A DNA stretch of 64,000 nucleotides from positions 4,974-68,973 of the forward strand of contig CAMHHL010000001.1 in NCBI GenBank assembly GCA_946184925.1, written 5' to 3'. Below are positions 13,357-61,687 of this stretch, one piece after another. Below the pieces are notes generated by a model, which did not search any database, was not told the origin of the DNA, and was given only the letters and a program-made list of their open reading frames with translations. The position numbers and the translations under genes are program-made. Positions within the stretch are counted from its first letter, which is position 1, and each line of letters opens with the position of its first letter. This stretch comes from an uncultured Clostridia bacterium. Lineage in GTDB: Bacteria > Bacillota > Clostridia > Oscillospirales > Acutalibacteraceae.

Positions 13357-13440
13357 AGGCAACACCGCACAATTTACGGCGCACGCCTTGCTTGAATATT
13401 GTTCCGTCATGTTGCCCAAAAAAGTCTCGGCAAGGCGTCA
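13357..13440. repeat. 84-bp element, copy 1 (exact reverse complement of 61604-61687)
   Basis: Base-by-base comparison: 84/84 identical, mismatch immediately on both sides. Confidence 0.97.
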
Positions 13441-13519
13441 GCCTTACCTCGATTTTTTGTCCAACCTGACGAAAAATCTTACTTCGCAATCCGCACACCT
13501 AAATTATGCGGTATTGCCT
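13357..13519 (-). ncRNA. Candidate structured 5' leader RNA (not matched to any known family)
   Basis: Terminal 20-bp stem 13500-13519/13357-13376 with two U-G wobbles on the minus strand, two internal hairpins, starts 7 nt after a -10 box. Confidence 0.55.
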
Positions 13520-13526
13520 TTATTCT

Positions 13527-13555
13527 ATTTTATACCAAGGTAACGTTCTTGTCAA
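13527..13555 (-). promoter_or_regulatory. SigA-type promoter of the transglutaminase-like gene
   Basis: Minus strand TTGACA-17 nt-TAAAAT. Confidence 0.75.
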
Positions 13556-13659
13556 CGCAAATCTCGTGCACATTGCACAAAGAAGCGATAATTTTTCGAT
13601 GAATTTTTCCCGAAATGACCGCATATAAATGTACCAAATGATTATCCGGAGGGCTTTAT

Positions 13660-13926
13660 GTGAAAGGTATAGTGGAAGAAAGAGCCGCAATGCTCGGCGA
13701 ATACATAATCGAAAGCAAGGCGACAGTCCGCTCCGCGGCAAAAAAGTTCGGAATCAGCAAGAGTACCGTCCACAAGGATGTAAGCCAGCGCCTCAAGAGC
13801 GTAAATCCCGGGCTGTACAGGGAAGTCAGGGAAATCCTCGACACAAACAAGAGCCAGCGCCATATCCGCGGCGGAATGGCGACAAGGAACAAGTATCTGC
13901 TGAGAAAAGCGGAAAACCAACATTGA
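13660..13926 (+). CDS. spoIIID: Sporulation transcription regulator SpoIIID
   Basis: YII..KATVR.AAKKFGISKSTVHKDV.QRL...N...RHIRGG.AT. Confidence 0.95.
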   Translation: MKGIVEERAAMLGEYIIESKATVRSAAKKFGISKSTVHKDVSQRLKSVNPGLYREVREILDTNKSQRHIRGGMATRNKYLLRKAENQH

Positions 13927-13930
13927 AAAA

Positions 13931-13970
13931 GGGAAGAAAACGCGGCAGCTGCGTGCGTTTTCTTCCCTGT
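13931..13970. terminator. Bidirectional terminator spoIIID/glnS
   Basis: 13-bp stem gggaagaaaacgc / gcgttttcttccc. Confidence 0.7.
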
Positions 13971-13974
13971 TCTT

Positions 13975-15648
13975 TTATTTTTTCTTAAAGCTGTCTTTGA
14001 GCCCTACGCTGCGGTTGAACACAAGAGCTTCCGGGGTGCTGTCCTTGCTGTCGGCGCAGAAGTAGCCCTGACGCATGAACTGGAAGCGATCTTCGGGTTT
14101 TGCCGAGACGAGAGCCTTCTCTACCTTGCAGTTTTTGAGCACGACGAGCGACTCGGGATTGATGTAATCGGTGAAGTCGCCCTCCTCGCCGTCCGGGTCG
14201 GGAACCGTGAAAAGATTGTCATAAAGCCTTATCTCAGCGTTCGCGCAGTCCCGCGCGTTAACCCAGTGGATTGTACCGCGAACCTTGCGCCCGTCGGGAG
14301 TATTTCCGCCTCTTGTCTCGGGATCATACTCGGCATAAACCTCAACGACCTCGCCGTTTTCGTCCTTTTTGCAGCCTGTACACTTTACAACATAGGCGCT
14401 CTTGATTCTGACCTCGTTGCCGGGGTAAAGACGCTGATACTTCTTGAACGGCTCCTCCATAAAGTCGGTGGATTCAATATAGAGCTCACGCGAGAAGGTG
14501 ACGGTTCTGGTGCCCATCTCGGGATGATTGGGGTGATTTTCTATCTCGAATTCCTCGGTTTTGTCCTCGGGGTAATTCGTAATCACGAGCTTCACGGGAT
14601 CAAGCACAGCCATAGCACGCGCGGCGTTTTCGTTAAGGTCGTCGCGGAGACAGTGCTCGAGGAAGCTGTACTCAACGGTTGAGTTGACCTTGGAAACGCC
14701 AATCCGGTCGGTAAAGCTGCGGATTGAAGCCGGGGTGTATCCGCGGCGGCGCATTCCGCAGAGCGTGGGCATGCGCGGATCGTCCCAGCCGCTGACGAAG
14801 TTTTCCTCGACAAGCTGACGGAGCTTGCGCTTGCTCATGACGGTGTTGTTGATTCCGAGACGCGCGAACTCAATCTGACGCGGCTTTGACGGAGCTGAAA
14901 TGTTCTCAACAACCCAGTCGTAGAGCGGTCGGTGGGCTTCGAACTCGAGAGTGCACAGCGAATGAGTGATTCCCTCAATCGCGTCCTCAATCGGGTGAGC
15001 AAAGTCATACATGGGATAGATGCACCATTTGCCGCCGGTGCGGTGGTGATGCATATGATTAATTCTGTAGATTACCGGGTCGCGAAGGCTGAAATTGCCG
15101 GACGCGAGGTCAATCTTCGCGCGCAGCGTCATTCTGCCCTCCTCAAATTCGCCGTTTCTCATGCGCCTGAAAAGGTCGATGTTTTCCTTGACCGGGCGGT
15201 CGCGATAAGGGCTTTTTGCCGGGGTTGTGAGGTCGCCGCGATACTCGCGCATTTGCTCTCCCGTAAGCTCGCAAACATACGCAAGTCCCTTGTTGATTAG
15301 CTCCACGGCATAGTCATACATCTGCTCAAAATAATCGGAAGCGTAGTAGAACCTGTCCTCCCAATCGAAGCCGAGCCACTTGATGTCCTCTTTTATCGCG
15401 TCGACATACTCAACATCCTCCTTGGTAGGGTTGGTGTCGTCCATGCGAAGATTACACAGTCCGCCGAACTTTTCCGCGGTGCCGAAATCAACGCAAATCG
15501 CCTTTGCGTGACCGATGTGAAGATAGCCGTTCGGCTCCGGCGGAAAACGGGTGTGAACCCTTTTTCCGTAATATTCGCCGCCCTCGGAGATGTCCTCCGT
15601 AATAAAGCGGTGTATAAAATTTTCGTTAACTAATTTTTCATCTGCCAT
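13975..15648 (-). CDS. glnS: Glutamine--tRNA ligase
   Basis: [50 protein letters not shown]. Confidence 0.97.
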
Positions 15649-15662
15649 AAGAATACCTGCTA

Positions 15663-17114
15663 TTATAATTTTTTTAGTCCTTTTTCAAGTCTTCTGAGAC
15701 TCTCGTCGCGACCGAGAATGTCAAGAATCTCAATCGCTCCGCCCGGTGTGACGGTCTGTCCTGCCGCCGCGATGCGAACCGGCCACATGACCGTGCCGTT
15801 TTTGAGCTCCTTTTCCTGAGCCATATTAATAAGACAATCGTGGATGCTGTCGGCGTTCCACTCGGGGAGAGCCTTGAGCCTCTCGTACGCTTCCCTGAGA
15901 ATTGAGGGAACGTTGTCGAGGTTGGTTTTGCTCTTTTTATTGACAAAAAGCTCGGTGCCGTACTCGGGAAGCTCGGCGAAGAAGCGGAGCTTGTCGGGAA
16001 TGTCGGTGAACTTTTCGGTTCTCTTCTGCAAAATTCCGGCGAACTTTGCGTAATCCATCGGCTTATCGCCGAAAACCTCCTTGTAATAAGGCATGGCGTG
16101 CGCGGTGAATTCTTCCTCGGACATCGCCTTGATGTACTCGGCGTTGAACCAGAGCAGCTTGTCATAGTCGAACACCGCCGGGGATTTTGAGATACCCTCG
16201 ATGAAGAACGCCTGCTCGAGCTCCTTCATCGAGAAGATTTCCCGATTGTCCTTGGGGCACCAGCCGAGGAGCGCGATGTAGTTGATAATCGCCTCGGGGA
16301 GATAGCCCTGCTCAACCAAGTCCTCAAAGCCGGTCGCGCCGTGGCGCTTGGAAAGCTTGGAGACGGAGCCGTCCTCGTTCTTGCCCATAATCAGCGGCAG
16401 GTGAACGTAGGTCGGGATTTCCCATCCGAACGCGTCGTAAAGAAGATTATACTTCGGCGTGGAGCTGAGATATTCGCTTCCGCGGACGACGTGAGTAATT
16501 CCCATGGTGTGGTCGTCGATTACGTTCGCGAAGTTGTATGTCGGGTAGCCGTCGGTCTTGATAAGAATTTGATCCTGAAGCTCTGAGTTTTCGACGGTAA
16601 TCTCGCCGAACACGGCGTCCGAGAAGGTTGTGCTGCCCTCGAGCGGCATCTTCTGGCGGATTACATAGGGTGTGCCTGCGGCAAGCTGCGCGTCAATTTC
16701 CTCCTGAGAGAGGTCGCGGCAATGCCTGTCATAGCCGCCGAACTCTGAGTTCTCGGCAAGCTTTTCGAGCCTTTCCTTGGAGCAGAAGCAGCGGTAAGCC
16801 TTTCCGCTTTCGACAAGCTGCTCGGCGTAAGGCAGATACATATCCTTGCGCTCGCTCTGGACATAGGGACCGTAGTCGCCGCCCTTGTCGGGACCTTCGT
16901 CGTGGATTATTCCGGCTGTTTTCAGCGTGTTATAAATTACGTCAACTGCGCCCTCGACGTATCTCTCGCGGTCGGTATCCTCAATTCTGAGGACGAATGT
17001 GCCGCCGTTGGACTTTGCTATAAGATACTCATACAGCGCCGTGCGAAGGTTGCCGACGTGCATAAATCCCGTTGGCGAAGGCGCGTAGCGCGTGCGAACC
17101 TTTTTGATTACCAT
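15663..17114 (-). CDS. gltX: Glutamate--tRNA ligase
   Basis: [36 protein letters not shown]. Confidence 0.97.
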
Positions 17115-17148
17115 AAAAATCCCTCTTTGCTTTTAATATATCCGATAT

Positions 17149-17177
17149 ATTATATCATAAGAATATTAAGGTATCAA
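17149..17177 (-). promoter_or_regulatory. SigA-type promoter of gltX-glnS
   Basis: Minus strand TTGATA-17 nt-TATAAT. Confidence 0.7.
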
Positions 17178-17210
17178 GCATTTTTAATTTGGAGTTGATA
17201 GGTCGTATAT

Positions 17211-17414
17211 AATTAACAGTTAACAGTTAACAGTTAATAATTAACAGTTATGGTCGTGCAGACAGATTGCGCGATACTTACGTTTTGTTCCCGACAGAGT
17301 TTTTATGCTTGCTGCGCAAGCAGCATTTAAATCCGGTCGGCTATACGACGTTGTTTTCCTATTCGACCTATCTACTCGACCGAAACTGTTAATTATTAAC
17401 TGTAAACTATTAAC
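17211..17414. repeat. Composite repeat A: 130-bp core (17252-17381) inside inverted TTAACAG-type heptamer arms
   Basis: Arms 17219-17256 and 17377-17414 form a ~38-bp imperfect inverted repeat; core colinear with 25434-25563 and 53371-53500. Confidence 0.92.
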
Positions 17415-17416
17415 TT

Positions 17417-17440
17417 AAAAGCGCCGCTTTGTGCGGCGCC
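17417..17440 (-). terminator. Intrinsic terminator of the PBP gene, abutting repeat A
   Basis: Minus strand gcgccgc-acaaa-gcggcgc-tttt. Confidence 0.65.
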
Positions 17441-17442
17441 TT

Positions 17443-19512
17443 TCAGCTTGTTTTCTTATTCTTGAAATACTCGTCGAGGAGTGACTTTGCGACTCCCATG
17501 CTGAAACGTCCCTTTGCGCCGTGCTCAAGCACAACCGCGACAGCCACCTCGGGCTTTTCGTAGGGCGCGTAGCAGATGAATACGGTATGGTCGCTGCCGG
17601 AGTTCTCGGCTGTACCGGTCTTGGCGGCAACCTTAACCTTATAATTTCCGAAAACGCTGTAGGCGGTTCCGTATGGGGAGCTTACAACATTTCTCATAGC
17701 GCTTTGAACAGTCGCGAGATTATCCTTTGATACTCCCGAGGTGCTCAGCACCTCCGGCTTTGAGGAATTGTACTTATAGACTGTTTTCTTGCGCTCGTAG
17801 TTTCGGATTTCCTTGACGATATGTGTTTTCAGGCGAGTGCCGTTGTTGGCAATTGTCGCGACGTAGGTCGCGAGCTGAACCGGGGTGAACGCGTTATCCG
17901 ACTGACCGATTGCAGCCTGAACCGTGTTTCCCTCCTGCCAGGTTGTACTGTCACGTCCGGCGAGGAAGCCGGTGCTTTCGTCAACCTCGAGTCCGGTTTT
18001 CTCTCCCAGTCCGAATTTTTCGGCGTAGAGATACATAGTGTTGATGCCGAGCTTGCGTCCGGTTTCGGCGAAGAAGTAGTTACAGCTCTCGGTGATAGCG
18101 TCGTTGAGCCCGATTGAACCGTGAGTTCCCATGCACGCGACGGGGTTAGACGGATAATAGTCGTAGTACTTGGTGCAGGTGACGGTGGAAAACGGAGTTA
18201 TGGTTCCCTCCTGAAGCGCCGCGCACGCCACGCAGGGCTTAAACACCGAGCCGGGCGCGAACGAGCCGATAAACGCGCGGTTGTACATCGGAGCGGTTTT
18301 CGCCTCGGAGAGCGCAACATAATAGTCGCCGTACTTCGAATATTTATTGAGATCATAGGTCGGATAGCTCGCCGAAGCGAGAACCGAAAAGTCCTTTACA
18401 CTGAGCATAACAGCCGCGCCTGTCTCGCAGTCCTCGCCCTGACCTTCTCCCTCGGAGAGCATCTCGGTCTGACCGTTTGCCTTCGCCGCCTTGATCTGGG
18501 TTGCGAGAGCGGTGTTCGCGACCTTTTGAAGCTTGCTGTCGATTGTGAGATAGACGGTGTTGCCGGGCTTTGCCGCTTCGGACTGGACAAGCTTGGTGAT
18601 GTTACCCTCGGAGTTCTTCTGAACCATGCGCTCGCCGCCGACGCCCTTGAGCTCGTCCTCATAGGCAAGCTCTATGCCGAATTTTCCGATGCTGTCGTTG
18701 TAGCCGTAGTCCTTGCCCTCCTTGATTTTCGCCTCGTATTCCTCCTGATTGATGCTGCCGAGAGCACCGAGGATGTGCGGCGCGAGATTGCCGACGGGGT
18801 TGTAGCGCGTGAGGAAGGTCTGGATTTCAACTCCGCTTGTGCCCTGAGTATTTTCGCTGATTATGGCAACCATGTCGGAGCTTATATCCTGAGCAAAGAT
18901 ATACGGCGTTGAGTTGGAATAATAACAAAGCTCCATATTATAATGTATCGAAATCAAGTTTCTGAGATTAGTTTTGTTCTTGATTTTTCCGAGGTCATAG
19001 CGCTCGGTGAGAAGCTTGATGCATTTGTCGGCGGAGTCGCTGTTTTTGAGGTCGAGATAATCCTCCGACTTGAGTGTTTTGATGTCGTCGGCGCGGTTTT
19101 TCCTGAACTCAAAGCCGTTGTCGCCGAGCTTAATCGGCAGGGCGTCAATCCATTTTTCGCCGCGTGTGTTCATGAGCCTTATGAGCGAGAGCAGAGTTGA
19201 ATCAAGCTTGTCCTCATCCATATACAGCTTGTCAATCGCAACCCGGTAGCCGGTGCGGTTGACAGCGAGCCCGACACCGTTGCAGTCGAGGATTTCTCCT
19301 CTGGTAGCGTCGGTTGTGACTGAATAAGCGGTGGAGTTGCGGGCAATTTCGGAATACTCCTTACCGTCGGCAATCTGCCAAAAAAACAGCCGCACGACAA
19401 ATCCGCAGAAAATCACGAGTGTGATAATCACGCAGATTCCGACGCGCTTGCTGATGAATCTTTTCTGTTGTTCCTGTCTGTCCTTGTCTTCGTTCGGAAG
19501 CGTGAAAATCAC
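17443..19512 (-). CDS. mrdA: Class B penicillin-binding protein (PBP2/MrdA-like)
   Basis: N-terminal TM, RGEILD, SxxK (PGSVFK), SCN, KTGT; follows mreBCD; start codon uncertain. Confidence 0.88.
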   Translation of the reverse strand: MIFTLPNEDKDRQEQQKRFISKRVGICVIITLVIFCGFVVRLFFWQIADGKEYSEIARNSTAYSVTTDATRGEILDCNGVGLAVNRTGYRVAIDKLYMDEDKLDSTLLSLIRLMNTRGEKWIDALPIKLGDNGFEFRKNRADDIKTLKSEDYLDLKNSDSADKCIKLLTERYDLGKIKNKTNLRNLISIHYNMELCYYSNSTPYIFAQDISSDMVAIISENTQGTSGVEIQTFLTRYNPVGNLAPHILGALGSINQEEYEAKIKEGKDYGYNDSIGKFGIELAYEDELKGVGGERMVQKNSEGNITKLVQSEAAKPGNTVYLTIDSKLQKVANTALATQIKAAKANGQTEMLSEGEGQGEDCETGAAVMLSVKDFSVLASASYPTYDLNKYSKYGDYYVALSEAKTAPMYNRAFIGSFAPGSVFKPCVACAALQEGTITPFSTVTCTKYYDYYPSNPVACMGTHGSIGLNDAITESCNYFFAETGRKLGINTMYLYAEKFGLGEKTGLEVDESTGFLAGRDSTTWQEGNTVQAAIGQSDNAFTPVQLATYVATIANNGTRLKTHIVKEIRNYERKKTVYKYNSSKPEVLSTSGVSKDNLATVQSAMRNVVSSPYGTAYSVFGNYKVKVAAKTGTAENSGSDHTVFICYAPYEKPEVAVAVVLEHGAKGRFSMGVAKSLLDEYFKNKKTS

Positions 19513-19531
19513 CTCTTTCCATTAGATATAA

Positions 19532-20041
19532 TCAATCCCTCATGTTCTTGTAGAGGAAGCTGTTGAGGAAATATAGGATAACCTCGCAGGCTATTGTGTA
19601 GATGATCCGCGAGATATAGTGGTTAACAAAAAATCCGAGCGCGTTCCCCTTCCCCGCAATAACATAGAAGAAGAGGAAATACGCCAGAATCAGCGCGGTG
19701 GAAATCACCGCGGTGAACGCCATAACGTTGAGGAAGCTCGCGACGAGCTTGTCCCTGAAAAACATGCTCAGCCCAAAGCAAATCAGCGTGAGGGTGAACG
19801 TGAAGAAGCCCACGCCGTCGCCGTAGCCGAAATCGAGCATAAGTCCGCCGGCAAGACCGAAGAACATCGCCGGAAGCTCGGACTCCATGTATGAAATTGT
19901 CAGAACCGCCGGGAGAATCATCAGAGGCTTGCTGCCGAAGAGCTCCGGCATGAGGTTCGGCGTTGTCTGGAGCACAAAAAGCAGAATCAGCTCCAGCGAA
20001 TACGCAAGATATCTGAAAAATGTATATCTGTGTGCCATCAA
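19532..20041 (-). CDS. mreD: Rod shape-determining protein MreD
   Basis: Hydrophobic 169 aa, FGLAGGLMLD motif, position after mreC. Confidence 0.85.
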   Translation of the reverse strand: MMAHRYTFFRYLAYSLELILLFVLQTTPNLMPELFGSKPLMILPAVLTISYMESELPAMFFGLAGGLMLDFGYGDGVGFFTFTLTLICFGLSMFFRDKLVASFLNVMAFTAVISTALILAYFLFFYVIAGKGNALGFFVNHYISRIIYTIACEVILYFLNSFLYKNMRD

Positions 20042-20880: not shown

Positions 20881-20914
20881 AATTTATACAAAGCGAGCCG
20901 CAGCGCGGCTCTGA

Positions 20915-25365: not shown

Positions 25366-25789
25366 CAATTAGCAATGTGCAATGAGCAATTAATGTACAA
25401 GTTGTAAGTGGTAAGATGTAAGTTGTAAGTTGTTGTCGTGCAGACAGATTGCGCGATACTTACGTTTGGTGCCCGACAGAATTTTTATGCTTGCTGCGCA
25501 AGCAGCATAGAAATATTTTCGGCGCAGCGGCGTTGTTTTCCTATTCGACCTATCTACTCGACCATAACTTACAACTTCCTGCTTACAACTTACAACTTAA
25601 CAGTCGTTTGATAGGACAGCAACACACAGCTCAAACGTTACCTTTACAGACGTCGGATAGGAGCAGTTGTCACAGCCCAAACACAACATCGGATAGGAGA
25701 AGTCACGTAACAGGGTTGAGATAGTAAAAAAGGAGCACTCAAGCCAAAAGGGTAGAGAGAGAAAAAACTGCCGCGGAGTGCGGCAGTTT
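25366..25789. repeat. Composite repeat B: GCAATTA heptamers, TTGTAAG arms, 130-bp core (25434-25563), terminator-adjacent module and terminator
   Basis: Modules align by eye with repeats A, C and D. Confidence 0.92.
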
Positions 25790-25795
25790 GGGATG

Positions 25796-27379
25796 TTAAC
25801 TTTCGTCAGCCTGAAGCTTGATGGAGACCTTGTAGGTTTTGTCCGCGTCGGGGCGGTAGATTTCGAGCATAACCTCGTCGCCTGCCTTGTGCTTGGCGAG
25901 CGCGTTGTAAATATCGGTGAAGGTCTGGGTTTTTGTTCCGTCGAGAGAAACGATTACATCTCCCTCCCGAACGCCCTTTCCGTCGAGAGGTCCGCCCTCG
26001 CCGATTGTTTCGACCTGAATTCCGTAAATTTCTGCTTCTTCATTGTAGACGGCTCTTCCGGTTATACCGATTTTTACTCGTCCGCCTACGAAGCCGTTGC
26101 GGATGATGTCATCGGTGATTTCCTTGACGGTTTGGCTCGGAATAGCGAAAGCCATCGCCTCAAAATCATCGAGAACAATTTTTGAGGAAGTTATGCCGAT
26201 AACATAGCCGTACATATTGCAGAGCGGTCCGCCGGAGTTTCCGGGGTTGATTGCCGCGTCGGTCTGGATAAGCTTTGAAATGTTTGAAACAGAGGTCTCG
26301 CGGTCAATTGCGGAGATAATTCCCTTTGTGACTGAGTTCTGATACGCAAGGCTGCGCGGATTGCCGACAGCGATGACGTCTTCGGTTACTTTGTTCTGGG
26401 CGCTGTCACCGAACTGAGCCGGAGTGAGACCTTTCGCGTCGATTTTGAGCACGGCGAGGTCGGTTCGGTTGTCGAAGCCTACAACGCCTGCCTTGTACTC
26501 CTTGTTGTCGTTGGTGACAACCTTGATTTTGTACGCGGTGCGGCTGTTTGCGACAATGTGCGAGTTTGTAATGATGTAGCCGTCGGAGGTTGTGATTATT
26601 CCGGTGCCCATTCCCGTGTAGCTTGAGGTTGTGCCCTCCTGTCCGTCAACATAGCAGATTATTCCGACGACAGATTTCTCAACGTTTTCAAAGGCGTATT
26701 CGGCGCCGTATTTCTCAGAATCCTTTTTCTCGGGCTTTTTATTGAGACTTAGTCCGGTGTAGTTTTTATTTACTTTATCCTTGGCGTCCGACTCGGGATA
26801 ATTGCCGTTCCCGATTTCCGCGTCGGTTTCGGGCTGCGGAGTGGTGCTGATTTCGGTCGGGAGCTCAAAGTTGAATCCGCCGTTATCCCGGCTCTGCGAA
26901 TCCGCGCTCTTGGTGTCGTGATTCATAGCCGTAAAGGTTATGAACGCCGCGAGCGCCGCCGCCAAAATCGCAATCGCAATTGCGACGAACGCCTTTTGTC
27001 CGCCGGACATCGGCTGCTTCTGCGGAGCAGGTACGCCGTAGGTAATCCGGTAATAGTCCGGCTGCTCGTTCTGAGGAATGTAGGGGTTGCGGTTGTCGCG
27101 CGGAGCATACGGCGGCTGCGGAGGATAAGCAAACCCCTGCTGACGATAGCCGAACGGGGGCTCCTGCGGCGCCGGCTGAGGCACAGGCTGAGGCTCCTGC
27201 GCAGGCTCGGGCTGAGGCTCCGGGTACGCAACCGGCTGCTCGGGCATCGGGGGCACACTCGGAGTTTCGGGCTGGGTATAATTCATTGCCGGAGCACGGG
27301 GAGGCGTCGGAGGAGGAGTGGGTCTGCTCTCCGGCTCGGTTGATGTATTTTCATTTATATTATTGTTGAATTCGTCCAT
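25796..27379 (-). CDS. htrA: HtrA/DegP-like membrane serine protease with PDZ domain
   Basis: GTGIITTSDGYIITNSH, DLAVLKI, IQTDAAINPGNSGGPL, PDZ; Pro/Gln-rich N-terminus then TM; AAGGAG RBS. Confidence 0.92.
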   Translation of the reverse strand: MDEFNNNINENTSTEPESRPTPPPTPPRAPAMNYTQPETPSVPPMPEQPVAYPEPQPEPAQEPQPVPQPAPQEPPFGYRQQGFAYPPQPPYAPRDNRNPYIPQNEQPDYYRITYGVPAPQKQPMSGGQKAFVAIAIAILAAALAAFITFTAMNHDTKSADSQSRDNGGFNFELPTEISTTPQPETDAEIGNGNYPESDAKDKVNKNYTGLSLNKKPEKKDSEKYGAEYAFENVEKSVVGIICYVDGQEGTTSSYTGMGTGIITTSDGYIITNSHIVANSRTAYKIKVVTNDNKEYKAGVVGFDNRTDLAVLKIDAKGLTPAQFGDSAQNKVTEDVIAVGNPRSLAYQNSVTKGIISAIDRETSVSNISKLIQTDAAINPGNSGGPLCNMYGYVIGITSSKIVLDDFEAMAFAIPSQTVKEITDDIIRNGFVGGRVKIGITGRAVYNEEAEIYGIQVETIGEGGPLDGKGVREGDVIVSLDGTKTQTFTDIYNALAKHKAGDEVMLEIYRPDADKTYKVSIKLQADES

Positions 27380-29514: not shown

Positions 29515-29517
29515 AGG

Positions 29518-33169: not shown

Positions 33170-33182
33170 TAAATAACCCACA

Positions 33183-33605
33183 AAACTGCCGCACTCCGCG
33201 GCAGTTTTTTCTTTCTCTACCCTTTTGGCTTGCGTGCTCCTATCCGATGTTTTGTTTGGGCTGTGACAACTGTTCCGAACCGACGTCAAAAGCCTTCCCT
33301 TGGGGGAAGGTGTCGCCGACAACTTGTTGGCGGTGACGGATGAGGGACTACGTTTTTGCAAGAAGTGCTTTTGATAAGGAGTATTCTTTACTCTATATCA
33401 CGGTTTCTGTTAAATGTTGGTTATTGTAACAATAAACTGAGATGTATCGGAAAAGTAGTCCCTCATCCGACCGATTCGCAAGCGAATCGCCCACCTTCCC
33501 CCAAGGGAAGGCTTTCACGTTTCCGCTGCGTTAATTGCTAATTGCTCATTGCTAATTGCTAATTAATTACGCATTACGAATTACGCATTACGAATTATGC
33601 ATTAC
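33183..33605. repeat. Composite repeat C: terminator + adjacent module, inverted pair of REP-like palindromic units, AATTGCT and ATTACGC heptamer arrays
   Basis: 33183-33287 matches rc of 25650-25789 with one deletion; 33291-33355 is the exact rc of 53555-53619. Confidence 0.92.
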
Positions 33606-44495: not shown

Positions 44496-47400
44496 ATGTT
44501 CAAAAAATTCACCGGGCTGCTGCTCGCGATGGCTCTTTTAGCAGGGATGTTAGTTTTTCCCGGCTCAACAGCTTCCGCGGAAACAACCGCCGAAAGCACA
44601 CGCCAGTTCGCTCAGTCTACGGTACGCGGAAGCGCGGTGCTGCACTGCTTCAACTGGTCGTACAAAGCGATAACCGAGAACCTCGCCGACATTAGAGCGG
44701 CAGGCTACACCGCGGTTCAGACCTCGCCCGTTCAGGCTCCGAAGGACTACAACTCCTACTGGACAGATTTAAACGGTCAGTGGTGGAAGATGTACCAGCC
44801 AATCGGACTGAGCGTTGCCGACGGCAATACCTGGCTCGGCACCAAGGCTGAGCTGAAAACCCTCTGCGATACGGCGGAGGAGTACGGCATTAAGGTCATT
44901 GTTGACATTGTCGCGAACCACCTGGCGAACAACGGCAGCGACGGCGGAACCTACTCCTACCTCAACTCGGGCGTTGAGTCCGACCTCAAAAACTCCTCAT
45001 ATTATCACACCAACAATATTTGGATTAACGATGACAGCCGATATAATATGACTCAGTATCATATCGGTATGCCCGACCTCAACACATCAAACAGCTATAT
45101 TCAGAAAAAGGCTCTCAGTCTGCTGAAGGAATGCGCCGACCTCGGCGTTGACGGCTTCCGCTTTGACGCGGCGAAGCACATTGAGCTCCCCACCGACTCG
45201 GGCTGCGCGAGCGACTTCTGGCCGACGGTCATAAACGGCGTCAACAGCTATAAGAGCGGACTTTTCTCCTACGGAGAAATCCTCGGCGGCGCAGGCACCG
45301 AAATCTCAAACTACACCAAATACATGGACATCACCGACAACTATACCGGCGAAAAAGTCCTCGACAAGGTCTACTACAATGCGCCGACCGAAGCCGCGGA
45401 CATAACATACTACAAGGGCGCCGGAGCGTCACACTCCGTGCTCTGGGTTGAATCTCACGACACATATATGGGGGAAACCGGCTCATCCGCGTTCAAAAAC
45501 ACCTCAGCGATATCCTCCGACATTCTCACGAGAGCATGGGCTGTCATCGCCTCGAGAGCTGATTCGACCGCGCTTTACTTCGCGAGACCGAACTCGACAA
45601 TGGGCAAGGCGAGCTCCGACACAAACTGGAAATCTACAGCCGTCGCCGAGGTCAACAAGTTCAAAAACTTCTTTGACGGCACCGAAGAATATCTCTCCTC
45701 AAGTTCAAGTAATTACTGCGTTTATAACGAGCGCTCAACCTCAGGCGTTGTAATCTCCAAGCTTAACGGCGGAGGAACGGTCAGCCTCACCGCCCACAAA
45801 ATGGCGGACGGAACCTACACCGATCAGGTCTCCGGCAACACCTTCACCGTTTCCGGCGGAAAAATCCGCGGAACCGTCGGCTCGACGGGCGTCGCCGTTG
45901 TTTATAACCCGGAGGATGACTCCGCGCTGAATCCGCTCAAGAACACCTATCTCCTCGGCGACTTCAACAGCTGGAGCGAGAGCGACAGCTCAAAAATGAA
46001 CGCCGACTCGGACACCGTGCTGAGCAAAACAATTACGCTGAGCAAGGGCACCTATGCCTTCAAGATAAAAATGTTCGACACCTGGTACGGCAACGACGGA
46101 ACAATCACTGACACAACCACCACAACCTCAACCCACGGCTGGGAATTTTCGGAAGCGGCGGACGACTGCACCTTAGACGCCACCGGCGGAAAATATACCT
46201 TTACGCTCGACACAAGCACTATGAAGCTCATCATCACGCGCGAAGAAACACCGACCGAAGCCACCACCAAGGCTCCCGGTATTTCGTACTATGTTGTCGG
46301 CTCGTTCAACGGCTGGAGCAATTCCACCGCAATCAGCGACGGCTATTCCGTCAACCTGAAAGCCGGAACCTACACCTTCAAAATCAAGGACAGCAACGGC
46401 AACTGGTACGGCAACGGCGGAAAAATTTCCGACACAACCACCACAACCTCAACCCACGGCTGGCAGTTCACCTCATCAGCCGGCAACTGTACACTTGTCG
46501 CGACGGGCGGCGTCTACACCTTTACCCTCAACACAAGCACAATGAAGGTCATAGTCACCCACTCCCAGGAAACAGTTGAGCCGCACGAGGTTTCTTACTA
46601 TCTTGTCGGCGATTTCAACAACTGGAGCAATTCCTCCGAAATCGGCGACGGTTACACAATTCACCTCGACAAAGGGAGCTATTTGTTCAAAATTATAGAC
46701 AGCGACGGCAACTGGTACGGCAACGACGGAACAATCGCCGACACAACAACAACCACCTCAACTCACGGCTGGCAGTTCACCCCGGAAGCCGGGGACTGCA
46801 CGCTGACCGCTTCCGGAGGAAGCTATACCTTCACCTTTAACACGGAAACTATGAAGCTCATAGTCACCTACGCGGAGGACGTTACGGAGCATGACTACAC
46901 CGTGAATTTCGTATACAAATATCACGTCTTTGATACGTCACAGGGGCTTGAATACGCTGACGGACGCGAGTCATCGGCTCTCAACACCTATACTGCGACA
47001 AGCACGTTAACCTCTGCCGAGCTCGACGACGCAAATTATGTCAATAGCCTTGCCAAGCAAAATACGCCGGATATTCTGAGCAATTACTATAATTACAGCT
47101 TTCCGGAAAGCGACGAGGATTATGTCGTCTCTGACGCGGTGAACGGCGTGGTCAATGTTACCGTCACACTCGAGAATTCTCCGAGAGAATACACTGTTTA
47201 TCTGCTCAGCGGCGAGAAGAACGGAAGCATAGTCAAGACCAAAACCTGTCACTATAACGAGAGCGTAACCTTCGACGCAAGCTCGGACGGCGAGTGTGAA
47301 GCAGAATTTGAGGACGGATTCATCTGGCATTACGGCAAAAAGAACTATAATCCGACTTCCGACACAGTGCTCTCGGTTAAAAAGTCGTTCTCATTCAAGG

Positions 47401-52709: not shown

Positions 52710-52816
52710 ATTTTTGTAATTCTTGAAAATAACTGTTGATTTTCTTCGACACAAGTATATAATATATGCAGGCGGGAAAATACTCACCGGCGGAAAACAA
52801 GAGGACGGATTTTTGT

Positions 52817-53191: not shown

Positions 53192-53198
53192 CGAAATT

Positions 53199-53234
53199 AA
53201 CCCGGCTGAGGCAAAGGCTTCAGCCGGGTTTTTT
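53199..53234 (+). terminator. Intrinsic terminator abutting repeat D
   Basis: aacccggctga / tcagccgggtt + tttt. Confidence 0.8.
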
Positions 53235-53645
53235 ATATCTCTACCCTGTTTTTTACTATCTCTATCCTGTTACGTGAGTGCTCCTATCAAAGGTTTGGCT
53301 TGAGCTGTGACAACTGCTCCGAACCGACGTCTGTTAAGTTGTAAGTTGTAAGTGAAAAGTTGTAAGTTGCGGTCGAGTAGATAGGCTGAATAGGAAAACA
53401 ACGTCGTATAGCCGACCGGATTTAAATGCTGCTTGCGCAGCAAGCATAAAAATTCTGTCGGGCAACAGGCGTGAGAAACTCACAATCTGTCTGCCCGACC
53501 TTTAATTACGCATTACGCATTACGAATTACGCATTAAAAAAGCACTTCTTTCAGAAACGTAGTCCCTCATCCGTCACCGCCAACAAGTTGTCGGCGACAC
53601 CTTCCCCCAAGGGAAGGCTCGGTGCGTTTCCGCTACGCTAATTGC
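53235..53645. repeat. Composite repeat D: terminator-adjacent module, TTGTAAG array, reversed 130-bp core (53371-53500), ATTACGC array, REP-like unit
   Basis: Each module matches repeats A, B or C. Confidence 0.92.
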
Positions 53646-54975: not shown

Positions 54976-55020
54976 AGTATTGTTTGAGTTCTGTTTTGAA
55001 GTAATTGTCCTTTATTACAA

Positions 55021-55049
55021 CTAAAACCCGCCAATACGGCGGGTTTTAG
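55021..55049. terminator. Strong terminator after the small peptide gene
   Basis: Perfect 12-bp stem ctaaaacccgcc / ggcgggttttag. Confidence 0.85.
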
Positions 55050-55062
55050 GTTTCTGATTTTT

Positions 55063-55206
55063 TTAACCCTCATCATCCGGAAGAGTAATAGGCTGAGTGG
55101 GGTTCTCTGTAGGATTAGTAACGTCGGGGTTTGAAGTTGTTAACACATCTTCAGAAGCATACTTCTTTTCTTCAAACTCAGGACGGTTATAGGTTCTTTT
55201 CTCCAT
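55063..55206 (-). CDS. Unannotated 47-aa peptide with RiPP-leader-like N-terminus
   Basis: Manual translation MEKRTYNRPEFEEKKYASEDVLTTSNPDVTNPTENPTQPITLPDDEG*; AAGGAGGT RBS; below ORF-track cutoff. Confidence 0.85.
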   Translation of the reverse strand: MEKRTYNRPEFEEKKYASEDVLTTSNPDVTNPTENPTQPITLPDDEG

Positions 55207-55225
55207 TTCTTTACCTCCTTAAATA

Positions 55226-56653: not shown

Positions 56654-56819
56654 CACATTCATCCCCTTTTGGAATAAAATCAATTCAATTTGACTACAGG
56701 TTTACAATAACTTTAGCAAAGCTAACCGAATTAACCTTCTTTGATTTTCACAATAGCCTTAGCGTACTTTCTTGAAAAAATCACTAATGTGCTACCGCGC
56801 TTTTTAGCTTTACTTTATA

Positions 56820-56848
56820 ATTATATACTATTAACAAAACAATTTCAA
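56820..56848 (-). promoter_or_regulatory. SigA-type promoter of cohesin-like gene/peptide unit
   Basis: Minus strand TTGAAA-17 nt-TATAAT. Confidence 0.7.
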
Positions 56849-56901
56849 TATCTTTTTTAAGTTTCGTCAAACTTAATGTAAATTTAGTTTTTCAAAATGT
56901 T

Positions 56902-57738
56902 TTAGTTATCCTCAAAAAGCTCGGGGTGCATCCGGCTGTAATGGAAAATATACTGCTGAGCAATTCCGGCATATTCGCCAAAGCTTTCGGGCGTCATATC
57001 GGGGAACAGCTTTTCCATCGCGCGCTTCATCCATACGTCAACCGGGAACGCCTCGACGCGGTGAAGCCCGAAGAGGAGCGTGCAGTCGGCAACCTTTTTG
57101 CCGACGCCCTTGATTTTCATAAGCTCCGCTCTGGCTTCGTCATAGTCCGCCGTCCTGCACATCTCGAGATTGACCTCGCCGGAGCTTATCTTCCTTGCGG
57201 CGTCGATAATGTACTTCGCGCGGAAGCCTGCCCTCAGCGGAGTCAAATCCTCCGCCTCAAGCGCGGCGAGTCTCTCCGCTTCGGGAAAGGAAAAACCGCT
57301 GCCGACCGGTTCGCCGAAGCTCTCGCACAGTCTGGCGACTATTCCCTTGATTCGCTTGATGTTGTTATTCTGCGAGATAATGAATGTGCACAGCGCCTCC
57401 CACGGCTCCTGACGCAGAATTCTGATTCCCGGCGCATATTGTGCCGCCTCGGCGAGCACAGGGTGAAGCCTGCTTATTTCGGTGCGGATTGCTCCGTAGT
57501 CGAGCTCCAAATCAAGATACGGCATCCATATTTTTTCAAAATCCTCCGCCGTTGTGTTGTCGATATATAATGTATTGCCGTCAAGCCGCATTAAAACCTC
57601 GCGGTTGAACGCTATTCCTCTGAAACCGTCTCCGGTATCTGCCCAGCGGAAGCTCTGACCGCAGTCGAGCGTCTGGGCAAGGTCGAGGTCGGTGACGCCC
57701 TCAACCTTCACTCCTGTTTCTGTAATTTTATAATCCAT
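56902..57738 (-). CDS. 8-oxoguanine DNA glycosylase (HhH-GPD family)
   Basis: TLDCGQSFRW, LRQEPWE....FIISQNNNIKRI, IKGVGKKVADC, FPVDVW. Confidence 0.92.
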   Translation of the reverse strand: MDYKITETGVKVEGVTDLDLAQTLDCGQSFRWADTGDGFRGIAFNREVLMRLDGNTLYIDNTTAEDFEKIWMPYLDLELDYGAIRTEISRLHPVLAEAAQYAPGIRILRQEPWEALCTFIISQNNNIKRIKGIVARLCESFGEPVGSGFSFPEAERLAALEAEDLTPLRAGFRAKYIIDAARKISSGEVNLEMCRTADYDEARAELMKIKGVGKKVADCTLLFGLHRVEAFPVDVWMKRAMEKLFPDMTPESFGEYAGIAQQYIFHYSRMHPELFEDN

Positions 57739-57824
57739 ATTTACCTCAAAATCCCATTAACCTCTTGTTATGTAATCTCCAAATATGCTACAATATGCTT
57801 ATAATCTAAGTTGGAGGCTGACTT

Positions 57825-58514
57825 ATGAAAGAAAACATCACCACCATCCCAATCAACGACCTTTTCAAGCCGAAGGACGGCTGTCCGATTTGCCGAATGG
57901 AGGACATGCTCGAGAAAACCTACGTTGACTTCATCGTGGGCGACGCGATGATGGAACCGAACATCCGCATTGAAACAAACCGCAAGGGGTTTTGCCACAG
58001 GCACTACAGCAAGATGTTCGCCGCAGGTCAGAAGCTTCCGAATGCTCTGATTATGGAATCGCACCTGAAATCAATTATCGAGAACGTTCTTCCCGAAAAA
58101 CCCGGCTCAAAGCCCGACAAGAAGGCTCTCGAAAAAATCGAGGAGCTCAACCGCACCTGCTATGTCTGCGACAGAATTGACAGGGACATTCACCATCTGC
58201 TCTCAACCGTGCTGTCGGAATATGTCAAGTCGGACGAATTCCGTGAGCTGTACAGGGCTCAGCCCTTCCTTTGTCTAAACCACTATGCGCTGATTATGCG
58301 CGACGCGATGGGCAGGGGCGGAATCAAATCGAAGAACATGGCGGATTTTCACCGCGACACCTATAATCTCACCAAGAACTATCTTTCCTCGCTCAAGGAG
58401 GACACGACCTACTTCTGCTCAATGTTCGACTACCGCAACCGCGGCGGCGACTTCGGCAAGAGCAAGGACGTCATCGAGCGGAACATCGAATATCTCACCA
58501 AGGAAAAGCCCTGA
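57825..58514 (+). CDS. DUF6062-like protein with two CxxC...CxxH units
   Basis: CPIC...GFCHRH and CYVC...LCLNH. Confidence 0.7.
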   Translation: MKENITTIPINDLFKPKDGCPICRMEDMLEKTYVDFIVGDAMMEPNIRIETNRKGFCHRHYSKMFAAGQKLPNALIMESHLKSIIENVLPEKPGSKPDKKALEKIEELNRTCYVCDRIDRDIHHLLSTVLSEYVKSDEFRELYRAQPFLCLNHYALIMRDAMGRGGIKSKNMADFHRDTYNLTKNYLSSLKEDTTYFCSMFDYRNRGGDFGKSKDVIERNIEYLTKEKP

Positions 58515-60443
58515 TTACTTATAGTCATCCTCAATGCAGAAGTACGGAGCGATGATATCGGCGGCGTTAAGCTTGTAGAGCACGTTGTCATTCACAGGAA
58601 CCGCCTGCGGGTCACTCACTTCCTTTTCGTCTCCGTTTGAAAACTCAATCTGACTGTATAGATAACGGTTCACGGATATCTTATAGATTCCGTGGCCGTT
58701 TTCGTCTTTCTTGACGAAGGTCATCGGCACACCGTTCTGCTCGGTTTTTGCGGAACTGAGGTTCGCATACACCTTGTCCCAGTCCTTCGAGTTGGTGAAA
58801 TAGATTGTCACATCTCCGCGGTGATTGTAGGCTGAAAGCTCGGTGTATTCCTCAATAAGCCGACGGCTCCACTCCTCAGTGTCCTCAGCCTTGTCCGCTT
58901 CGGCTACGGTTTTCTTCAAACGCTGATAGCAGTCGTAAGAGCTGAGAGTGTACAGCTTGCCGAGCAGCTCCTTTGCTGCGCCGGCAAGATAGTCTGCAGA
59001 ACCGCTGTCGCCGGTTCTGCTCCCCGGGAAAATCACTTCGCTCTCAAAGGTCGCGAGGAATGCGGCTTTGTCGGCGAGCAGGTCGGGGATTTTTCTGACA
59101 GGCTCGGGCCTGCGTGCGGTGTAGGCACTGCGGCAGCCCTCCATAATATAGCAGGAAAGCGGATAAATCTTGTCGTGATAGAGATTCTCTCCGTTATATA
59201 TTATCTCGTCGTCGAACACCTGAACATAGTAGCCTTCCGTAAAATCCTTATACTCGTCACCTTGGCTTCCGACATAGCTGAGCTTGTGGGAGCTTTCGTT
59301 GATAATCGTAGGACAGCAGACGGAGCTGTTGTGAATCATATGGCATGCGGTATCGTTCATATTGGAATAGTTGTAGCCGTATTTGAACGCAATGTGGGTG
59401 TGCCCCGACATCCAGACCACCTTCGGGTGCGCCCGGAGAATATCGCGGAAGCGAACGGTCGATTTGTGCTTGACCGACAACGGCACATCATAATAATTAT
59501 TCTCGTCGTCGCCGGCGCCGTAGCTTTCAATCAAGGCATGCTGAACAACGTATATGTTCCTGCCCTTGTCGTAATACTTGTTGATTATTCCCTCGAACCA
59601 GTCGAGCTGCTCATCTGAAAACTCATCTTCATCATAGGGGTTGAAGTTGGTTTCCAGCGCGCAGAAAATGAAAATGTCGCCGCTTTTCGGCTCTTCTATC
59701 ATAAAATACGGTTTGTCACCCTCAACTCCCGTCGCTGACATAAAGGCGCTGAGCATCGACTCCGGCGTTCCGACGCGCAGCTCATGGTTGCCGTCGCTCT
59801 CATAAACCGGGTTGTTAAAATCGGAATCAGCGAGGATTTCCTGATATTTGTCAAATTCCTTCGCCGGGCCCTCTCCGTTGGTGATATTATCGCCGGAGGT
59901 GACGATAAAATCCGCTCCGCGCCTTGCGGCGGTTTCGAGCGCCTTTTGCCAGTGGAGCTCGCTGTGTCGGTAGAACACGCTGCTCGCCTCGTCGATGTGG
60001 ATATCCGAATAACTCATGAAGGTGTAGTTTATGTCCTTCGACGAATAGCCGAGCCGCTTTTCGGCAGGTATATCGTACACCGCCGCCGCGGAGGCAACGG
60101 TCGGATTGTTTTTATCCTTGCAGACTATCAGCTTTTCGGCGTCAACCGGGATTGCGGTGTGCTCGCCGAATTCAACCTTTGCAAAGCCGGATTTCACGTT
60201 CATTTCGGAAATTTCGTAATATCCGTCGAGCGCCTTTTCTCCGTTCGCCCAGAAGAGGAAATACTTTCCGTCGTCAAGCCCGGTGAGCGTTATTGTGCCC
60301 TCGGCGTAGCCCGGCTTGTTCTGTTCATCGCCGGAAAAGCTGTAGTTGATTTTCGCCGCAGCCGAAGTGTTGACAGCCGCAGCCGCTAGGAGCATCGCGG
60401 CAATACAGGTTACCGCGGTCAGTTTTTTCAGAAAAATTTTCAT
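58515..60443 (-). CDS. Secreted calcineurin-like metallophosphoesterase with C-terminal CBM26-like segment
   Basis: Signal peptide; SDIH, SGDIT, GNHE, GHTH motifs; C-terminal IYFTNSKDWDKVY...GVPMT...IYKI...IEFSNG. Confidence 0.82.
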   Translation of the reverse strand: MKIFLKKLTAVTCIAAMLLAAAAVNTSAAAKINYSFSGDEQNKPGYAEGTITLTGLDDGKYFLFWANGEKALDGYYEISEMNVKSGFAKVEFGEHTAIPVDAEKLIVCKDKNNPTVASAAAVYDIPAEKRLGYSSKDINYTFMSYSDIHIDEASSVFYRHSELHWQKALETAARRGADFIVTSGDNITNGEGPAKEFDKYQEILADSDFNNPVYESDGNHELRVGTPESMLSAFMSATGVEGDKPYFMIEEPKSGDIFIFCALETNFNPYDEDEFSDEQLDWFEGIINKYYDKGRNIYVVQHALIESYGAGDDENNYYDVPLSVKHKSTVRFRDILRAHPKVVWMSGHTHIAFKYGYNYSNMNDTACHMIHNSSVCCPTIINESSHKLSYVGSQGDEYKDFTEGYYVQVFDDEIIYNGENLYHDKIYPLSCYIMEGCRSAYTARRPEPVRKIPDLLADKAAFLATFESEVIFPGSRTGDSGSADYLAGAAKELLGKLYTLSSYDCYQRLKKTVAEADKAEDTEEWSRRLIEEYTELSAYNHRGDVTIYFTNSKDWDKVYANLSSAKTEQNGVPMTFVKKDENGHGIYKISVNRYLYSQIEFSNGDEKEVSDPQAVPVNDNVLYKLNAADIIAPYFCIEDDYK

Positions 60444-60558
60444 ATAATTCACCGCTTTTTTCAAAACTTTTGAAGCTGTATTAATTTTACAATGATTTTG
60501 TTTATTTTTCAATAAAAATCTGCCTTATATTGCGCATACTATCCTTGAGGTGAAAGCA

Positions 60559-60738
60559 ATGAAAAGATATCTTGATTATGACGAGGATTATCCTGTCTAT
60601 CCCGGGGAAGATAACCTCGGTTTTCCGGCGTCGTCATATGATATGACGGGGCTGATTCCCTCGGCGCCCGAAAGCGACGACGAGGCGCAGGCATATGAAG
60701 AAATTTACCCTTACGCTCCGGACGATATACAAGAGTAA
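60559..60738 (+). CDS. Small acidic hypothetical protein
   Basis: 59 aa, GAGGTG RBS, ASSYDMTGLIP...EEIYPY, followed by terminator. Confidence 0.7.
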   Translation: MKRYLDYDEDYPVYPGEDNLGFPASSYDMTGLIPSAPESDDEAQAYEEIYPYAPDDIQE

Positions 60739-60741
60739 AAA

Positions 60742-60768
60742 GCGGCTGTCACCTGAGTGACAGCCGTT
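60742..60768. terminator. Bidirectional terminator
   Basis: gcggctgtcac / gtgacagccgt. Confidence 0.7.
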
Positions 60769-60778
60769 GCTGCTTTAT

Positions 60779-61588
60779 CTATCTGTCAAAAAACCTTACA
60801 TCCCCGTAGTTGCACACGTATCGCTGAGACTCGTGGAAGTTCGAAATTCCGCTTGCCATCATCGTCGGATTATACATGTAGAGAATTCGGTGCTGAATCG
60901 CCGACTTGTCCATGTCGAAGATATACACAACAGCGTCCTTGACCGTCTGGGTAGCCGGGATGTCGGTTCTGCCGGTGTAGTGAAGCTGACTGATAATCGT
61001 AGCTACGTCATATATTCCGTAAGTCACCATATCGTCCCTGATTGCCTGAGCAATCATCGCCGCGCCGGTAAAGCCGCCGGAGCCGTACTCGCCCATACAG
61101 ATTCGCTCGAGCAAATCCCTGTTCTTGTCGCTGAGTTCGATGTGAACGCTTGAGTAGCTTGTGTCGGGGTTGTCAATCGCGACGAGGTAGCCTGCGTTCC
61201 ACTGAGCGTCATAGGACGCCTTGTTTTCAACCGGAGGAGCGGTGGCGAATTTGAGCGGTTCGGTCGTTTCGGATGCGGTTGTGGGTTGGGTGGCCTTTTT
61301 GGTTGAGGCTTTTGTTTTGGCGGAAGCTTTGGAGGATGTTTTTGAGGTTTTCTTAACACTGACAACCTTGGTCTCAACCTCGACCTCTGTGGGAGGTTCG
61401 GTTGTCTCGGTTTCCGTAACCGGCTCGGTGACAGCCTGAGTAACAGCCGCGGTTGTCGGCTCGGTCTCCGCCTGAGTTGAGGACTGACCTATGCCCTGAA
61501 CGGCGAGCGGAATCCCAATAGCGATGCATAGAGCCGCTATTGCGGAAATGAGTATTATGTTTATCCGTTTCTCAAAAATATTCTTCAA
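60779..61588 (-). CDS. Membrane-anchored SleB/Hydrolase_2-like cell wall hydrolase
   Basis: TTG start after AAAGGAAG; TM, Thr/Glu/Lys-rich linker, NRDLLERICMGEYG..G..GAAMIAQAI, terminal VRFF. Confidence 0.68.
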   Translation of the reverse strand: MKNIFEKRINIILISAIAALCIAIGIPLAVQGIGQSSTQAETEPTTAAVTQAVTEPVTETETTEPPTEVEVETKVVSVKKTSKTSSKASAKTKASTKKATQPTTASETTEPLKFATAPPVENKASYDAQWNAGYLVAIDNPDTSYSSVHIELSDKNRDLLERICMGEYGSGGFTGAAMIAQAIRDDMVTYGIYDVATIISQLHYTGRTDIPATQTVKDAVVYIFDMDKSAIQHRILYMYNPTMMASGISNFHESQRYVCNYGDVRFFDR

Positions 61589-61603
61589 AGTTAAACTTCC
61601 TTT

Positions 61604-61687
61604 TGACGCCTTGCCGAGACTTTTTTGGGCAACATGACGGAACAATATTCAAGCAAGGCGTGCGCCGTAAATTGTGCGGTGTTGCCT
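61604..61687. repeat. 84-bp element, copy 2 (exact reverse complement of 13357-13440)
   Basis: 84/84 identity; fills almost the whole DegT-hydrolase intergenic gap. Confidence 0.97.

Follow-up and report, generated by a model that had tools for sequence, protein, structure and literature searches.

An exact inverted repeat in an Acutalibacteraceae genome as one intact and one half copy of a probable 161-bp miniature inverted-repeat transposable element

The 64,000-nt stretch analysed here (contig CAMHHL010000001.1, positions 4,974 to 68,973, assembly GCA_946184925.1, from an uncultured Clostridia bacterium of the Acutalibacteraceae; hereafter, the window) contains an exact inverted repeat of 84 nt: 13357-13440 on the + strand (copy 1) and 61604-61687 on the - strand (copy 2) are 84/84 reverse complements, 48 kb apart. 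Copy 1 lies between spoIIID (13660-13926, + strand; Pfam SpoIIID, E 1.4e-37) and a divergent gene for a 729-aa secreted or lipoprotein-like protein (11152-13341, - strand), and copy 2 between a DegT/DnrJ/EryC1-family aminotransferase gene (degT; 61691-62896, - strand; Pfam E 7e-87) and, downstream of it, the gene for a 269-aa membrane-anchored protein (60779-61588, - strand; TTG start at 61588-61586 and ribosome-binding site (RBS) AGGAAG at 61601-61596). An earlier, sequence-only reading of the window had reported the repeat as an undescribed regulatory or mobile RNA/DNA element next to a transglutaminase-like and a SleB-like gene. The 84/84 repeat itself was confirmed, both by a repeat search and by a search allowing <=3 mismatches (2 places in the window, 0 expected from shuffles). 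The two gene labels were not: in the 729-aa protein Pfam finds only LRR_5 and Big_2, and the 269-aa protein has no Pfam match. The repeat very probably represents one intact and one half copy of an abundant, recently active, non-coding MITE (miniature inverted-repeat transposable element) of 161 bp from rumen and gut Oscillospiraceae, of a family that appears to be undescribed.

The boundaries of this element were given by its other carriers. A 32-mer from the repeat was found at 9 loci in 6 Ruminococcus/Oscillospiraceae genomes, where the left boundary was the same as in the window and the rightward match continued, at all 9 loci, just as it does after copy 1; BLAST of these loci yielded a common block, corresponding to 13354-13523, with 97-100% identity and unrelated flanks. 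The sharp boundaries previously ascribed to the 84-bp unit do not hold for copy 1, since the match continues by ~79 bp, to 13518, in every other carrier genome. Positions 13357-13440 are the left arm of a 161-bp element (13358-13518; GGCAAC...ATTGCC, or GGCAAY...RTTGCC in the family) together with one base of its target-site duplication (TSD). The full-length identity of this copy to those at unrelated loci elsewhere is 97-100%, and the same limits are seen in metagenome depth: in 4 gut/rumen metagenomes the assembler depth was ~490-2500 over 13344-13528 and 3-21 beside it (~25-500 times the flanks), and contigs with many different flanks started or ended exactly at 13357 and 13518-13520. No coding capacity was found in the 161-bp element, which is crossed only by mechanical open reading frames (ORFs).

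The whole 161-bp block is an imperfect palindrome. The terminal inverted repeats (TIRs) are 20-28 nt long, with GGCAAYACCGCAYAATTTA at both ends (~28 nt if transitions are allowed): the left, C-type TIR GGCAACACCGCACAATTTACGGCGCACG (13358-13385, + strand) pairs with the right, T-type TIR GGCAATACCGCATAATTTAGGTGTGCGG (13491-13518, - strand), and the two differ by transitions and one 1-nt indel only. The end words of the family are GGCAAYACCGCA...TGCGGTRTTGCC, and the terminal 19-20 nt of the TIRs are kept in all subfamilies. Folded as RNA, the block forms a single hairpin: -86.5 kcal/mol (z -11) for the - strand and -56.6 kcal/mol (z -6.7) for the + strand. At the apex of the foldback (13418-13458) lie A6, an 8-bp G+C-rich stem (13429-13436 / 13441-13448) with a 4-nt loop (13437-13440), and T6, with a 4-5-nt spacer from stem to T run; this module folds at -15.7 and -20.9 kcal/mol (z ~-4.6), gave a terminator-like match on the - strand and, by its sequence, looks like an intrinsic terminator in both directions. 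The apex sequence varies, even entirely, among the subfamilies, yet the hairpin is retained. The element is flanked by TTTA on the left (13354-13357) and by the identical TTTA on the right (13519-13522). Because the shared 84 nt are one arm only, the sequence-only reading had noted neither TIR nor TSD, both of which the real 161-bp unit possesses. A TSD of 4 bp was also evident elsewhere: the flanking 4-mers were identical in 35 of the 52 independent insertions (TTAA commonest and TAAA second, also TTTA and TATA), and, in the register starting one base outside the element, matches of length 3 and length 5 amounted to 3/52 and 0/52, respectively. In the few insertions where a non-A/T base adjoined GGC or GCC, the opposite outer base covaried: CTAA..CTAA and TTAG..TTAG, and CTTA..CTTA in metagenome loci.

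The 20-nt end word AGGCAAYACCGCAYAATTTA was present at 81 loci in species-representative (GTDB) genomes and on 94 metagenome contigs (175 in total). The genome carriers were mostly rumen/gut metagenome-assembled genomes (MAGs) of Ruminococcus, Oscillospiraceae, and Acutalibacteraceae, and also included Agathobaculum, Gemmiger, Allofournierella, and Acetivibrio ethanolgignens; a few carrier bins bear other taxon labels and are possibly contaminated. Elements with paired ends fell into size classes of 38-58 bp (minimal TIR-TIR), 123-142 bp (internally deleted), 161-163 bp (the main class), and 171-175 bp (the second class), with a few longer ones of 208-220, 269, 310, and 440 bp. Relatives of ~70% identity were found in plasmid and phage collections: one Subdoligranulum plasmid and five unannotated faecal phage contigs. 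The BLAST of related genomes that had been proposed as a check revealed many copies with unrelated neighbours. A MITE with many scattered copies, which the sequence-only reading had named as a refuting outcome if it were already catalogued, is essentially what was found; no description of it was found, its TIR words are not printed in the open literature, and a large MITE census (PMC11602168) mentions Ruminococcus merely in passing. Copy 1 is base-identical to copies in Ruminococcus sp. JL13D9 and MAG bin.37, and, since the DegT proteins of bin.37 and the window are only 82% identical, the sequences indicate that the element has moved recently and between species.

Most of the metagenome matches (L244-L337, human gut metagenome contigs) represent a single orthologous 56-bp TIR-TIR mini element, present in one conserved locus of a species common in the human gut, where it appears fixed rather than polymorphic; its flanking 4-mers are now mismatched (TTAA vs TAAT or GAAT). 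At another locus (L012, 1848-4841; RUG394, ONLA01000077.1) a segment of ~3 kb lies between a solo TIR-like end and a 56-bp mini element, with flanks TAAA/TAAA; the segment contains three small genes, two with XRE-type helix-turn-helix domains, and may be a MITE-bounded composite or due to chance.

Copy 2 (61604-61686, - strand) is truncated: it holds the C-type arm only, from GGCAAC (61686) to ...GGCAAGGCGTC(A) (61605/61604), and is without the right arm and right TIR, breaking in the loop of the central 8-bp hairpin, after which host spacer follows. At its intact end the target 4-mer TAAA (61687-61690, - strand) stands directly after the degT stop codon (61691-61693). The sequence-only reading had allowed that one copy might be an assembly artefact; copy 2 is not, because independent Logan contigs (run X1) span both of its junctions at flank depth (~19-20) and the ENA assembly of the same sample holds both loci base for base. 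Orthologous sites were found to be empty. In ~25 genomes with a DegT 87-93% identical to that of the window, the same downstream gene is kept, with a TTG/GTG start and the N-terminus M-K/R-x-L/F-F/L-E-K-R conserved, and the spacers, of 13-60 nt, are all without the element; the search for empty sites, also proposed earlier, was successful for copy 2 in this way, and recovered none for copy 1. After subtraction of the 84 nt, the spacer in the window reads TAA-TAAA-AGGAAGTTTAACT-TTG, which is of normal length and has an intact RBS. The element would have entered this 17-18-nt spacer between degT and the next gene at TAAA, and a deletion would then have extended from the foldback tip to, or nearly to, the far end of the element, leaving a product of 83-84 bp without the hairpin or terminator-like apex and sparing the native RBS. 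Since the hairpin and apex module are lost and the transcribed strand is without significant structure, copy 2 should be nearly neutral inside the degT operon, and this may be the reason the truncated copy persists.

Other broken copies bear on this origin. BLAST of the 161-mer against the fetched loci showed many further partial copies, broken at positions ranging from 23 to 52, and two more arm-only copies (L026 and L110) that keep the same arm and break <=5 nt from the same apex, such that apex-broken half elements are present at 3 independent loci. The broken end of L110 adjoins the stop codon of a gene for UDP-glucose dehydrogenase, and the relative L113 has two genes (~1.75 kb) that are missing there; because the broken end coincides with the loss of sequence kept in L113, this locus suggests a deletion starting at the palindrome centre. 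A 220-bp copy (L255, 2795-3014; JAEEGL013205932.1) is interrupted, precisely at its apex loop, by ~58 nt of foreign DNA, another sign of the foldback tip as a preferred site of breakage or insertion. Deletion mediated by direct repeats was also considered for copy 2 and rejected: the available repeats (GCCTTA, apex and right junction) predict a product that was not observed.

The ends of IS5 begin with GG, as do those of this family. From its TIR and TSD, the element is likely to have been mobilised in trans: it would have moved by cut-and-paste via a DDE transposase with an IS5-like target preference. The listed targets of IS5 are CTAG, CTAA, TTAG, CTTA, and others, with TTAA also used, i.e. 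Py-T-A-Pu (PMC5493358). Like the IS5 group, this family has a duplicated tetranucleotide target, and TTAA, CTAA, TTAG, and CTTA are common to both; the eukaryotic relatives of the IS5 family are PIF/Harbinger elements, with their Tourist MITEs. The dominance of TTAA as the duplicated 4-bp target is also reminiscent of piggyBac / IS1380-type elements, the ends of which are CCC...GGG; unlike these, the target of the MITE is not strictly TTAA, and its ends are GGC...GCC.

The two arms of the element differ in an asymmetric manner. Transitions between the arms almost all keep G·U (G·T) pairs on the strand that begins with the T-type end, while the other strand receives C·A mismatches, and this is the cause of the ~30 kcal/mol difference in folding between the strands. 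The tally of G·U to C·A was 7:0 in the window, and other subfamilies gave 10:0, 11:1, and 10:1; when the TIR positions that are shared are set aside, it was ~54:11 across eleven diverged representatives, which are not fully independent. The G·U-preserving pattern was found in every diverged subfamily, at subfamily-specific positions. It could reflect selection on, or C-to-T damage of, one single strand, or inheritance from a master copy.

Several other explanations of the repeat were weighed. Two perfect inverted repeats 48 kb apart might have been homogenised by conversion or inverted-repeat recombination, or might bound an invertible or composite 48-kb segment. The same 84 nt are equally identical in the copies of other species, so that local homogenisation is unneeded; both contigs of the independent assembly match the window order, breaking at other repeats near 53.4 kb, and no strand-changing joints were seen in the contig data, although contigs are weak for such detection. 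We regard these scenarios as extremely improbable. Of the earlier proposal of "recent copying or ongoing conversion", the former part stands and the latter does not: recent movement explains the 84/84 identity without local conversion, and the two copies would be recent insertions from one very uniform master sequence. A further possibility was a regulatory role in cis for the 84-nt unit, as an RNA (leader, riboswitch, or pseudoknot) located upstream of two genes of the cell envelope. In its favour, the distance to a start codon is 15 nt for each copy (to the ATG at 13341 for copy 1 and to the TTG at 61588 for copy 2, as had been reported correctly), the complementary word pairs GGCAACA/TGTTGCC and ACGCCTTGC/GCAAGGCGT, previously interpreted as a pseudoknot, do exist, and MITE copies occur in metatranscriptome contigs. 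However, in copy 1 it is the outer end of the repeat that lies 15 nt from the start codon, whereas in copy 2 it is the opposite end, broken at the apex, and the copies face their downstream genes in opposite orientations; the matching distances are therefore a coincidence. The orthologs of the copy 2 gene are without the element, which elsewhere adjoins unrelated genes in all arrangements. Folding of the 84-mer was no better than that of shuffles (z +0.64 and -1.48), and Rfam gave nothing meaningful for the whole window at gathering thresholds or for 13250-13700 at E up to 10. Among 29 diverse copies, helix 1 was kept in 11 and helix 2 in 16, essentially those of the window's 161-163-bp class, and outside this class the helices were lost with no compensatory changes. 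In the intact element, the segments with these words pair with the other arm instead, and the words reflect the short motifs GGCAA / TTGCC repeated along the arms. The metatranscriptome matches, in two bovine data sets, lie inside longer contigs, which carry no direction or local depth, and show co-transcription somewhere in the community rather than for this genome. Loose ORF calls gave an orientation bias of 15:4 relative to the flanking genes, which shrank to 9:6 (p 0.6) when the calls were made stricter; the bias is not claimed, and therefore provides no argument for a function at the RNA level. The regulatory-RNA explanation is thus largely refuted, and we give it scarcely any credence: of the "regulatory or mobile RNA/DNA element" originally suggested, the mobile DNA remained, while Rfam, folding, and covariation were all empty for a regulatory RNA. 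As for the type of mobile element, an IS630/Tc1-mariner lineage (Correia/RUP-like) with a 2-bp TA duplication agreed with a first tabulation, in which TA/TA was the commonest flanking dinucleotide and 39/52 insertions matched. This was dropped once the flanking 4-mers were tabulated: the junctions show a 4-bp duplication, and the A and T once assigned to the ends of the element vary together with the outer flank at the other end (CTAA..CTAA, TTAG..TTAG, CTTA..CTTA). A TA-duplicating IS630/Tc1 type is therefore ruled out, and an origin of the family in this lineage is very unlikely.

With regard to copy 2, the half element may itself be mobile if the apex, ...CGGCAAGGC, serves the transposase as a second, cryptic end for insertion at TWWA sites. 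The three arm-only copies keep the same arm and end <=5 nt from each other, and each is followed by a target-like 4-mer: an exact TAAA/TAAA flanks the arm in L026, TTAA vs TCAA in L110, and TCAA or AAAA vs TAAA in the window. Furthermore, there is a likeness between the apex word GGCAAGGC and the terminal GGCAAYAC, and 6 of the last 11 nt agree with the true right end. However, the flanking repeat is perfect in only 1 of the 3 arm-only copies, an exact search of JGI metagenomes for the window's truncated junction gave 0 matches, all nine (9/9) genome matches to the apex-proximal 32-mer are full length, and the truncated end in L110 coincides with the absence of the ~1.75 kb seen in L113. We consider a mobile half element unlikely, and favour breakage at the palindrome centre followed by deletion, to which we assign an even chance. 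A different mechanism for the whole family may also be envisaged, in which it moves or is maintained via a strand-specific, single-stranded hairpin stage that is cut at the tip into one-arm copies; this would amount to an undescribed, horizontally spreading system of rumen/gut Oscillospiraceae. It is proposed because of the G·U pattern, the one-arm copies, the TTAA-type duplication, the lack of a transposase among our searches, and the base-identical interspecies copies, and appears improbable to us.

Some observations weigh against a cut-and-paste MITE with a copy 2 truncated by simple breakage. Searches of ~2.1 Mb of fetched loci, of viral contigs, and of the surroundings of solo ends yielded neither an autonomous element nor a transposase bounded by such ends: none among the ORFs <=3 kb from solo ends, none between the long end pairs of L012 and L059, and no matches in IMG/VR (0) or in metagenome contigs. 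TIR pairs found under relaxed criteria, with matching 4-mers and a separation of 600-4000 bp, enclosed only housekeeping ORFs, and no IS5-family DDE_Tnp_1-type gene was found in the fetched loci. To our knowledge, the mobilising enzyme of Correia elements is still not known. The target preference is looser than the Py-T-A-Pu of IS5 (PMC5493358), as this family is also commonly inserted at TAAA, TTTA, and TATA. Simple cut-and-paste of a double strand leaves the strand asymmetry in G·U pairs unexplained, and the deletion in copy 2 stops 0-1 nt from the would-be end of the element, which is neater than random breakage. In addition, an empty site for copy 1 was not recovered via the glnS neighbour, the sole close relative having another gene order. 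In that relative (L164, MAG RGIG84; compared with window 11152-15648), glnS is followed directly by a homolog of the 729-aa LRR/Big_2 gene, convergent and without spoIIID between them; the genes around copy 1 are thus arranged differently even where GlnS is 90% identical.

Copy 1 (13358-13518) is an intact insertion within the spacer shared with spoIIID, in the putative short leader of the LRR/Big_2 gene. A consensus scan detected a sigma-70-like promoter candidate facing the 729-aa gene (13527-13555, - strand; TTGACA-17-TAAAAT, 11/12), which ends 4 nt before the duplicated TAAA (- strand). If this candidate serves the 729-aa gene, the MITE would be located at ~+1 of a leader whose original length was ~15-18 nt, and the predicted 161-nt hairpin would now stand 6 nt upstream of the RBS of that gene. 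The -86 kcal/mol leader hairpin, or any copy, may affect the neighbour genes. In other genomes many copies also end ~5-20 nt from an RBS or start codon. This adjacency follows from insertion into short AT-rich spacers, because the T/A-rich tetranucleotide targets are concentrated there; insertions within genes were presumably lost.

Other repeats were also found in the window. A second family (17217-17421, 25399-25616, and 53318-53530) has a ~135-bp conserved core (GGTCGTGCAGACAGATTG...CCTATCTACTCGACC) in three copies, each flanked by tandem 6-7-nt repeats that differ by copy (AGTTAAC.., AAGTTGT.., TAATGCG..) and are inverted between left and right; it had no Rfam match at E up to 1. A third repeat of ~82 nt, GCCTTCCCTTGGGGGAAGGTGTCGCCGACAACTTGTTGGCGGTGACGGATGAGGGACTACG, with two obvious hairpins, occurs at 33291-33372 and 53538-53619 (98% complementary), and its diverged inverted partner at ~33455-33515 forms a large inverted pair at 33.3-33.5 kb with a ~80-nt spacer; its sole Rfam match was a weak, below-threshold serC leader (E 0.05). 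A fourth intergenic block (GACGTCGG.T.GGAGCAGTTGTCACAGC...; 25642-25798, 33174-33287, and 53249-53338; 84-92% alike) adjoins the second and third repeats and terminator-like hairpins (GCCGCGGAGTGCGGCAG), and small repeats of several kinds seem to accumulate in the same three or four spacers. At 46076-46879 lie three to four tandem direct repeats of ~309-321 bp (families D1 and D2; 74-77% identity), probably the coding sequence of a repeated protein domain.

In annotating rumen/gut Clostridia genomes, one should mask the 161-bp units, and fragments of these, or label them as MITEs: they break short-read assemblies and may be mistaken for regulatory RNAs, promoters, or leaders. Identical copies across species with ~82%-identical housekeeping proteins serve to mark recent exchange of DNA within the rumen community. 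Intact copies place a hairpin with a ~80-bp stem and a terminator-like tip in leaders and operon spacers and could change the expression of neighbours (in the window, an LRR/Big_2 surface protein, the spacer of spoIIID, and a membrane protein linked to degT). The family would carry greater weight if a novel parent transposase came to light, or if a single-strand mechanism lay behind the asymmetry.

Among known systems, the element is most readily compared with Correia/NEMIS (Neisseria), RUP and SPRITE (S. pneumoniae), and ERIC/IRU (enterobacteria): it is small and non-coding, has TIRs and a TSD, occurs in many near-identical intergenic copies, often beside promoters or RBSs, and folds as a whole into one hairpin. 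As in SPRITE, the centre is terminator-like, with a G+C-rich hairpin followed by a T run, and, as for known bacterial MITEs, copies are co-transcribed with neighbour genes (PMC10969869); known MITEs with such features terminate transcription, undergo RNase III cleavage, or alter transcript stability (PMC10969869). Although the strong hairpin is shared with IS200/IS605-derived PATEs and REP/BIME, and the G·T/G·U asymmetry would suit a single-strand intermediate, those elements have no TIR and no TSD, whereas this one has both. It differs from Correia and RUP in belonging to another sequence family, found in Oscillospiraceae/Ruminococcus, and in its TTAA-like TSD of 4 bp instead of TA.

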